DNA of 27,297 nucleotides, taken from a virus. A program made the position numbers and the translations under genes. Under the pieces are notes generated by a model. It was not told the origin of the DNA, ran no database searches, and worked only from the letters and a program-made list of their open reading frames with translations. Positions 7,036 to 7,718 of this stretch are shown here, piece after piece; positions within the stretch are counted from its first letter, which is position 1; each line of letters opens with the position of its first letter. The stretch lies in the UHGV virus genome UHGV-0184544. One strand, written 5' to 3'.

Positions 7036-7233
7036 ATTGTCTGGCTGCCGGAGAATTTGTTAAAAATTACATCGCGTGGTGAATCCCCCTCAGCGGCGGG
7101 GCATCTGGCAAAGTGTATGATCCAGCGAACATGCAAATTCAGTAGCCAGGCTGAATTTACCGGGAGGCACCTGGCACCATGCGACAGACAGAAATTAGGC
7201 TATACTTCAGCCCCTCTCCGGAGGGGCTTTTCT
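7036..7233 (+). ncRNA. Candidate small RNA unit A (paralog of unit B), ending in an intrinsic terminator
   Basis: Non-coding ~200 nt. Terminator at 7210-7233: 7-bp stem GCCCCTC/GAGGGGC, UCCG tetraloop, TTTTCT. Conserved blocks shared with 7504-7718. Putative -35 TTGTCT (7038-7043) with an A-rich -10-like element ~17 nt downstream. Confidence 0.35.
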
Positions 7234-7287
7234 GTGCAGGATGTGTCACAGTTTCCTGAATTCTGAGTACTGTCCTGTTACTCAGGG

Positions 7288-7445
7288 TGCTATATTTTCT
7301 GACGTGATGAAAGTCTGCCGGAAGGCGGAACGTATCGGAAATGACCCAGTAGAGAAAACGTTGACTCAGATACCGATGCTGAGTTACCGGGAAACCGGCA
7401 TCACATGACCGCTATCCTTCCAGGCTCGCTCCGGCGGGCCTTTTT
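7288..7445 (+). ncRNA. Candidate small RNA unit (middle), extended -10 promoter to intrinsic terminator
   Basis: TGcTATATT extended -10-like element at 7288-7296. Internal hairpin ACTCAG...CTGAGT (~7366-7387). Terminator at 7423-7445: stem GGCTCGC/GCGGGCC (one G-U), UCCG loop, TTTTT. Confidence 0.3.
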
Positions 7446-7503
7446 ACTGCAGAAAACAGTTTTCCCGTAAAATGCCACGTTACTCACAATTCAGGCTGGC
7501 GAT

Positions 7504-7718
7504 TATTGTCTGGCCAGCGGGAAGTTTGTTAAAAAAATATGGCATGGTGAATCCCCTGTGCGGAGGGGCATATCAGCGACAGGTGTTTGGTCACACCCCT
7601 TATCCTTTCTGGTGCGGGTTCAGGTGCTGATACTGAACTCACCGGGAGGCACCCGGCACCATGCATGAACGGTACATAGCGCTACTCTCCAGCCCCTCTC
7701 CGGAGGGGCTTTCTTGTT
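7504..7718 (+). ncRNA. Candidate small RNA unit B (paralog of unit A), ending in an intrinsic terminator
   Basis: Shares ATTGTCTGGC...TTTGTTAAAAA...TGGTGAATCCCC...GGGGCAT and CACCGGGAGGCACCNGGCACCATGC blocks with unit A. Terminator at 7692-7718 has the identical GCCCCTC-UCCG-GAGGGGC hairpin plus TTTCTTGTT. Confidence 0.35.

Follow-up and report, generated by a model that had tools for sequence, protein, structure and literature searches.

A probable tandem trio of STnc100/PasD-superfamily small RNA genes with a divergent middle member in a lambdoid prophage late region

Positions 7036-7718 of the virus genome UHGV-0184544, a sequence of 27,297 nucleotides (nt) that is referred to as a whole as the window, raise the question of what a late-region segment without an evident protein gene encodes. 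From the sequence alone, an earlier note had described three terminator-bounded non-coding units there, two of them paralogous, and proposed an array of prophage small RNA (sRNA) genes. The present analysis points, with a probability of roughly 0.75, to three independent, tandem sRNA genes of the STnc100/PasD superfamily on one strand, whose products would act by Hfq-dependent base-pairing and combine a shared scaffold with different 3' seeds. This reading is based on family membership, on conservation of the RNA structure, and on the conservation and mobility of a three-gene cassette. Family membership and structure, together with conserved promoter blocks and terminators, also back the proposed array with two paralogs.

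A pattern scan located the three GC-rich hairpins with a UCCG loop and a U-run that the earlier note had placed at the ends of the units on the plus strand. They lie at 7209-7228 (unit 1), 7422-7441 (unit 2) and 7691-7710 (unit 3), each with eight base pairs (six G-C), a TCCG loop in the DNA and a T-rich tail. The interval 6300-8100 contains 11 terminator-like sites, compared with 1.9 +/- 1.5 in shuffled sequences. The region has no credible open reading frame (ORF), as had been stated; the longest comprises 97 amino acids (aa) and has no Pfam match at E <= 0.1, and in a genome identical over 6900-7800 the equivalent 1.45 kb carries no annotation from the Prokaryotic Genome Annotation Pipeline (PGAP). 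None of the seven ORFs in or adjoining the array matches Pfam, which argues against the units being decayed fragments of a coding gene, and their PHROG matches are marginal except for one spurious family, phrog_23557, treated below. The conserved blocks reported for two paralogous units proved to be repeats of 32-37 nt with 75-91% identity, and the pair is formed by the first and the third unit (7032-7066 and 7501-7535, 80%; 7053-7088 and 7521-7556, 75%; 7151-7182 and 7633-7664, 91%; 7199-7235 and 7681-7717, 86%).

The identity of this pair is given by Rfam. A cmscan search of the whole window at gathering thresholds, a check that had been recommended, returned exactly two matches, both full-length matches to STnc100 (RF02076, gathering score 47 bits). 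They lie at 7044-7237 (139.9 bits, unit 1) and 7513-7721 (129.8 bits, unit 3), and both span model positions 1-206. The corresponding RNAs would run on the plus strand from ~7074 to 7233 (~160 nt) and from ~7542 to 7716 (~175 nt). A covariance model built from nine canonical STnc100 sequences with unit 2 excluded, termed R1, scores them at 144.9 and 170.6 bits. The RF02076 model also matches the Shiga toxin phages VT2-Sakai (207.7 bits, 75 nt past stx2B and back-to-back with AsxR) and VT1-Sakai (176.7 bits, after stx1B), in both cases directly upstream of an esterase homolog. The sRNA at this position is EcOnc27 of Sakai Sp5, or sRNA103 of EDL933, which binds Hfq (PMC4104026, PMC7873438, PMC12711010) and is listed with support from Northern blotting and Hfq cross-linking (Hfq-CRAC; PMC7873438). 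The STnc100 call of Bakta is explicitly equated with EcOnc27/sRNA103 (PMC12711010), and EDL933 transcribes all 11 of its STnc100 copies, one of them confirmed by Northern blot (PMC5331693). The full-length matches and the position of EcOnc27 thus make units 1 and 3 ordinary members of a catalogued family, and STnc100 is the same as EcOnc27 and sRNA103. The suggestion that the RNAs may be undescribed therefore falls for units 1 and 3 and holds only for the middle unit, a sub-threshold but clear homolog.

Unit 2, a divergent paralog of ~146 nt (~7302 to 7447, plus strand), aligns globally with the Rfam STnc100 model over positions 1-206 with 30 bits, below the required 47 (E = 4e-5 in a search of 223 nt), and is for this reason filed as a superfamily relative rather than as a member in the Rfam sense. 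On R1 it scores 47.5 bits (E ~1e-12, by a rough calibration) and its second allele 42.1 bits; both exceed PasD2 (34.6 bits) and PasD1 (32.6 bits), two sRNAs of enteropathogenic Escherichia coli (EPEC) E2348/69. All helices are kept with compensatory changes. The closing helix reads GUGAUG/CAUCAC where canonical members have GGUG/CACC, a compensated change visible in the sequence, and the minimum free energy (MFE) of the fold has a z-score of -2.5. Among 5426 complete E. coli genomes, 673 contain the unit, and two alleles are seen, >= 99% and ~86% identical to the window sequence. Differences between the alleles fall in 18 of 54 columns upstream of the -10 element and in 16 of 180 from the -10 element onward. 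Those in the 5' hairpin all preserve pairing (U-A to C-G, C-G to U-G, U-G to U-A), and the terminator remains a terminator after a 4-nt indel and one substitution. By this pattern of substitutions, the constraint on unit 2 is on the RNA and not on a protein.

The consensus structure of the nine canonical members, computed with RNAalifold, comprises a long-range 8-bp closing helix (GCAUGGUG/CACCAUGC) and four internal hairpins: a 5-bp hairpin (CCCCU.../...GGGG), a 3-bp stem that closes a variable insert, an 8-bp hairpin (GGGUUCAG/CUGAACUC) and a 5-bp hairpin (CCGGG/CCCGG). An unpaired, C/U-rich linker of 20-30 nt follows, and then the terminator. Among 14 distinct sequences, 97.8% of the cells are paired and 19 of the 37 pairs show double changes, counts that lean towards structure in that the alignment was fitted to the structure of the model; controls with the 3' partners slid by 1-3 columns gave 37-49% pairing and at most four double-changed pairs. 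The predicted fold of unit 1 has an MFE of -64.2 kcal/mol (z -3.0). The linkers of the three units differ from one another (GACAGACAGAAAUUAGGCUAUACUUCAG in unit 1, at 7183-7210; AUGACCGCUAUCCUUCCAGG in unit 2; and AUGAACGGUACAUAGCGCUACUCUCCAG in unit 3, at 7665-7692), several further linker classes are present in other loci, and the linker of unit 2 is identical between its two alleles. Predicted duplexes of the linkers with the initiation regions of nanS-p, the holin gene and Q, and with the minus-strand sRNA described below, gave a single signal, between unit 2 (7405-7424, CCUUCC) and the Shine-Dalgarno region of nanS-p (7900-7985; -18.9 kcal/mol, z -2.3 against shuffles), which is unconvincing across 12 tests.

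Every canonical member, as well as PasD1 and PasD2, is preceded by a -35-like TTG(T/A/C)CT, a spacer of 17-18 nt with TG at its end and an A-rich -10-like block (TTAAAAA). The A-rich block ends 6-8 nt ahead of the G at the position equivalent to the PasD 5' end. That end, GCAUGGUGAAUCC, was deduced from the coverage in RNA-seq and the size on Northern blots (PMC8550237, table S6), and it aligns to window positions 7074 and 7542. Being upstream of it, the conserved blocks are best read as promoter, with the RNA beginning at TGGTGAATCCCC. The earlier note had counted ATTGTCTGGC and TTTGTTAAAAA among the RNA parts; judged by the mapped 5' end of the homologous PasD, they would instead be the -35 and the extended -10 element. 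The putative promoters lie at 7037-7066 for unit 1 (-35 TTGTCT at 7037-7042, TG at 7058-7059, A-rich -10 TTAAAA/TAAAAA at 7060-7066) and at 7506-7535 for unit 3 (TTGTCT at 7506-7511, TG at 7527-7528, -10 TTAAAA/TAAAAA at 7529-7535), with transcription predicted to start at the PasD-equivalent positions. The extended -10-like TGcTATATT that had been pointed out in the middle unit was found at 7288-7296, between the paralogous pair, and is invariant between both unit 2 alleles.

Comparisons with other genomes showed that the three units travel together. Other prophages resemble the window from 6999-7003 onward, in strain M217 as far as 7710, which delimits a plus-strand cassette of ~710 bp (6999-7710) with the order STnc100, divergent paralog, STnc100. 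This order is constant in the E. coli AR_0013, STEC2018-607 and M217 loci and in Escherichia albertii loci, whereas the surroundings vary: three Q/antiterminator types occur upstream, tRNA genes are present or absent, and the downstream partner is AsxR, an EcOnc42-type gene or iraM. Most of 117 genuine middle-unit cores from IMG/VR and E. albertii have a canonical 5' motif ~350 nt upstream and another ~150 nt downstream, and R1 gave 296 matches in 100 of the IMG/VR loci, with three matches to a locus and a constant spacing. In the active temperate phage PhiR5_2 the cassette is present at 99.7% identity over 6900-7800. When one genome of each species was scanned for the core of unit 2, 51 matches were obtained, nearly all of them chance matches in unrelated, mostly environmental genomes, with only E. 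albertii genuine. The copies are mosaic; with 88% identity, unit 3 of the window is closer to unit 1 of STEC2018-607 than to unit 3 of that strain, which indicates recombination among the paralogs. No description of the tandem arrangement or of the middle unit was found in the searchable literature, and only that unit and the conserved three-gene cassette appear to be previously undescribed. Further R1 matches of 40-44 bits at other places in IMG/VR contigs (L152 949-1094 and L105 598-742 and L097 2076-2234 on the minus strand, L088 12896-13050 on the plus strand) suggest additional divergent members of the superfamily, possibly PasD-like.

In the proposed mechanism, each gene would be transcribed from its own sigma-70 promoter, of the TTGTCT type in units 1 and 3 and with the TGcTATATT element in unit 2, and would end at its own intrinsic terminator. 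If they behave like EcOnc27/sRNA103 and PasD1/2, the RNAs would be made in the lysogen and bound by Hfq through the U-tail of the terminator. They would pair with host and prophage mRNAs or sRNAs through the linker just 5' of the terminator, and, the linkers being different in the three units, the cassette would provide for three specificities. In the lytic cycle, polymerase modified by Q would read through all the sRNA genes. Hfq dependence, the position of the seeds and the nature of the targets are thus predictions from related sRNAs.

Several points weigh against this proposal, in addition to the leaning of the pair counts mentioned above. Transcript data for this locus or for unit 2 were not found in the searchable sources, and no direct target has been established for canonical STnc100, the effects of sRNA103 on fimZ and espA being possibly indirect (PMC5030294). 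The canonical -10 elements (TAAAAA) are far from the consensus, and neither unit 1 nor unit 3 has an uninterrupted U-tract (UUUUCUGUG, UUUCUUGUU), a possible cause of weaker termination and Hfq binding. The fold of unit 3 is no better than that of shuffled sequence (z -1.1), and the diversity of unit 2 amounts to about two alleles, so that its compensatory changes represent few independent events.

Four strong terminators lie within 550 bp, 3' of the Q gene and 5' of nanS-p and the lysis genes, and the late leader can itself give rise to an sRNA by termination, as StxS shows (PMC7873438). The units might on these grounds act mainly in cis, as three extra terminators and structured RNA between PR'/tR' and the nanS-p and lysis genes; such a stack would silence the late genes in the lysogen and be overridden by Q, and any sRNAs would arise from the PR' transcript as by-products or through processing. 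However, selection for termination alone would keep neither the ~120 nt multi-helix structure with its compensatory changes nor the promoter blocks ahead of each unit, and family members are transcribed without induction and are Hfq-bound (PMC4104026, PMC5331693, PMC8550237). A mainly cis-acting role is accordingly considered unlikely, although an insulating effect may be an additional function. It is quite unlikely, too, that the conserved five-helix scaffold is itself the functional part, as a protein- or ligand-binding RNA or a sponge of host sRNAs comparable to AsxR and AgvB, instead of the RNAs being seed-based mRNA repressors. Conservation is higher in the scaffold, including its unpaired nucleotides (GGUGAAUCC, GGGAGGCACC), than in the presumed seed, a pattern unusual for Hfq sRNAs; neighbouring sRNAs at the site are sponges (PMC4104026), and EcOnc27 has no known direct mRNA target (PMC5030294). 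Yet PasD, the sole relative whose interactome has been determined, uses its linker motif to pair with many mRNAs (PMC8550237), and the tests made here point to no specific protein or ligand.

Mosaic copies, an insertion sequence (IS)-truncated family copy in E2348/69 and the nature of the site as a known insertion hot spot (PMC4104026) are what would be expected if the array were evolutionary debris, that is, decaying duplicates or recombination scars of moron exchange with some or all copies functionless. This is very improbable given that the promoter, every helix and the terminator are kept in all three units, that an intact cassette is found in hundreds of genomes, in two species and in an active phage, and that substitutions avoid the transcribed region or are compensatory. 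The slimmest chance is given to the middle unit being a small protein gene or a dual-function RNA. A 55-aa ORF (7241-7408, plus strand), which contains an inner 33-aa ORF starting at ATG 7307, matches phrog_23557 over its full length (E = 2e-45) and is recorded as a hypothetical protein in PhiR5_2 and vB_EcoS phage records. The match exists because phage annotators called the ORF as a gene, and phrog_23557 is probably a spurious protein family produced by repeated ORF calling on the sRNA gene. The ATG of the 55-aa ORF is ATA in the second allele, and the ORF has no Pfam match. As far as the sequence can be read, no Shine-Dalgarno motif precedes ATG 7307, and the inner 33-codon frame carries five non-synonymous and two synonymous substitutions, clustered in the RNA hairpin with pairing kept. 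None of these alternatives explains the conserved multi-helix structure and the conserved promoters as well as three independent base-pairing sRNA genes do.

A further step, to which an even chance is assigned, is that the middle unit is an expressed and functional, so far unnamed third branch beside STnc100 and PasD, and that the triplet is a selected, mobile multi-seed cassette. If so, three targeting specificities on one scaffold would be present in ~12% of E. coli genomes, mostly outside the enterohaemorrhagic (EHEC) and EPEC strains in which the family was studied, and in tandem, in a family reported to have dispersed copies. Variation in STnc100/EcOnc27 was recently associated with the risk of haemolytic uraemic syndrome (PMC12711010). 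This sRNA gene adjoins stx2, and the cassette offers natural material on its function, with three paralogs side by side that have the same scaffold and different linkers; since PhiR5_2 is inducible and grows on K-12, the roles of seed and scaffold should be easy to separate genetically. There is also a consequence for annotation, as PGAP leaves 1.4 kb empty and a spurious 55-aa protein within the gene of the middle sRNA has entered phage annotations. The feature is real; two thirds of it belong to an already catalogued family, and the middle gene and the mobile cassette are a modest addition.

Comparison with known systems places the window closest to STnc100/EcOnc27/sRNA103, which units 1 and 3 resemble in structure, promoter blocks, orientation relative to PR' and location just 5' of the nanS-p esterase gene, and also in facing a convergent sRNA gene on the minus strand. 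In contrast to the Sakai phages with one STnc100 copy per prophage, the window has three superfamily genes in 710 bp. No two of the 11 STnc100 copies of EDL933 lie within 1 kb of each other by their published positions (PMC5331693), a spacing that argues against a triplet in that strain. The linkers of the window, which are the presumed seeds, differ from that of the Stx2-phage copy, and the window has no stx upstream of the array. PasD1 and PasD2 share with the window units the scaffold (33-35 bits on R1), the 5' end GCAUGGUGAAUCC and the promoter type, and are likewise found upstream of esterase or holin genes; a structural relationship between PasD and STnc100 has already been proposed, and Pas copies are described as dispersed, not tandem (bioRxiv 10.64898/2026.05.13.724894). 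PasD1/2 are supported by Northern blotting and by sequencing of ligated interacting RNAs (RIL-seq), with the seed in the linker before the terminator (PMC8550237). Their BLAST similarity to the window is confined to patches of 17-28 nt and the PasD seed CUUGUGAG does not occur in the window; with no PasA homolog past the esterase gene either, the units were rejected as PasD or PasA.

Adjacent same-strand sRNA paralogs, each with its own promoter and terminator and with conserved and divergent parts, are also represented by OmrA/OmrB and PrrF1/PrrF2. Those are core-genome genes in which the conserved part is the seed, whereas in the window the genes are phage-borne, the scaffold is conserved and the presumed seed is variable. 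Tandem paralogs of the OmrA/OmrB type serve as the contrast case in the Pas study (bioRxiv 10.64898/2026.05.13.724894). IpeX of the K-12 prophage DLP12 is likewise a moron-linked (nmpC) prophage sRNA near lysis genes, and a relationship was rejected, there being no STnc100 match anywhere in DLP12 571000-579500.

A fourth sRNA gene, absent from the earlier note and situated just outside the interval it had treated, faces the three units. This minus-strand gene (7724-7908, with an uncertain 5' end) would be antisense to the nanS-p leader and is assigned by homology to the EcOnc42/21/08 type. From ~7865 to 7724 it is 86.6% identical over 142 nt, 3' end included, to the RIL-seq-defined E2348C_1409/1408 intergenic region (IGR) sRNA of E2348/69, the EHEC homologs of which are EcOnc08/21/42. 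Its terminator was located by the pattern scan at 7751-7732, 20 nt from that of unit 3. The gene aligns with VT1-Sakai and AR_0013, whereas VT2-Sakai has AsxR there. AsxR or AgvB was rejected as the minus-strand partner, as RF02703 and RF02702 have no match in 6300-8000 even at E <= 10 and the 3' 60-100 nt differ from the AsxR region of VT2-Sakai. Tree et al. (2014; PMC4104026) described two convergent sRNAs 3' of stx2B, EcOnc02 and EcOnc27, and comparable pairs in seven further Sakai prophages. With the minus-strand gene facing the units, the locus is a triplicated version of this known convergent dyad, and the units and the EcOnc42-type gene together would constitute such a dyad at the moron boundary. 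The dyads of the PR' moron site (EcOnc27/AsxR, EcOnc06/AgvB and EcOnc22/EcOnc42; Tree et al. 2014) resemble the window in having an STnc100-type gene on the plus strand against a minus-strand Hfq sRNA gene, back-to-back terminators (here 7691-7710 and 7751-7732) and a place between the late promoter and the lysis cassette. The window differs from them in that the plus side is triplicated and the minus partner is of the EcOnc42/21/08 type rather than an anti-sRNA such as AsxR or AgvB; related cassettes in two other loci (L005, L007), unlike that of the window, pair with AsxR. In E2348/69 PP6, the STnc100 copy (L003 1137-1294) has lost its 5' end to an ISEc13 end (TGTATAAGAGACAG); it is oriented towards the 1409/1408 IGR sRNA gene.

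The array is placed in the late region of a lambdoid prophage, 3' of Q/PR' and 5' of the esterase and lysis genes, on the strand of PR'. Upstream neighbours encode NinG, NinH and a Q-like late antiterminator (5877-6503, plus strand; phrog_753, anti-termination protein Q-like, E = 3.5e-68), and downstream neighbours a nanS-p-type sialate O-acetylesterase (7953-9926, plus strand; Pfam DUF1737, SASA, DUF6645), a holin and a lysozyme. The site had been called the stx-equivalent locus. VT2-Sakai and VT1-Sakai have a single STnc100 gene between stxB and the esterase gene, and the array thus fills the sRNA position immediately 3' of the moron site rather than replacing stx. The moron slot of the window holds only a decayed tRNA-like relic (6768-6894, plus strand), which scores 26.5 bits with the Rfam tRNA model against a gathering score of 29 and is not called by ARAGORN at default settings; a true tRNA was therefore rejected. 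Its T-arm and 3' acceptor strand are intact (GGTTCGATTCCGGCCGCCACA), and tRNA-Ile/Arg/Arg genes occupy its position in related prophages. Just past the Q-like gene lie a candidate PR' (TTGCTT, 17 nt, TATGTT at ~6528-6556, plus strand) and then a candidate tR'-like hairpin with a T-run (~6661-6696, plus strand), and the segment 6528-6696 would be the late leader, the positional equivalent of StxS. A 17-nt direct repeat flanks the cassette (6975-6991, GAAAAGCGGGTGGCAAG; 7742-7758, GAAGCGCGGGTGGCAAG), its second copy belonging to the minus-strand sRNA terminator; its local alignment is no better than that of shuffled sequences, so that the repeat is probably due to chance and was rejected as an insertion scar.

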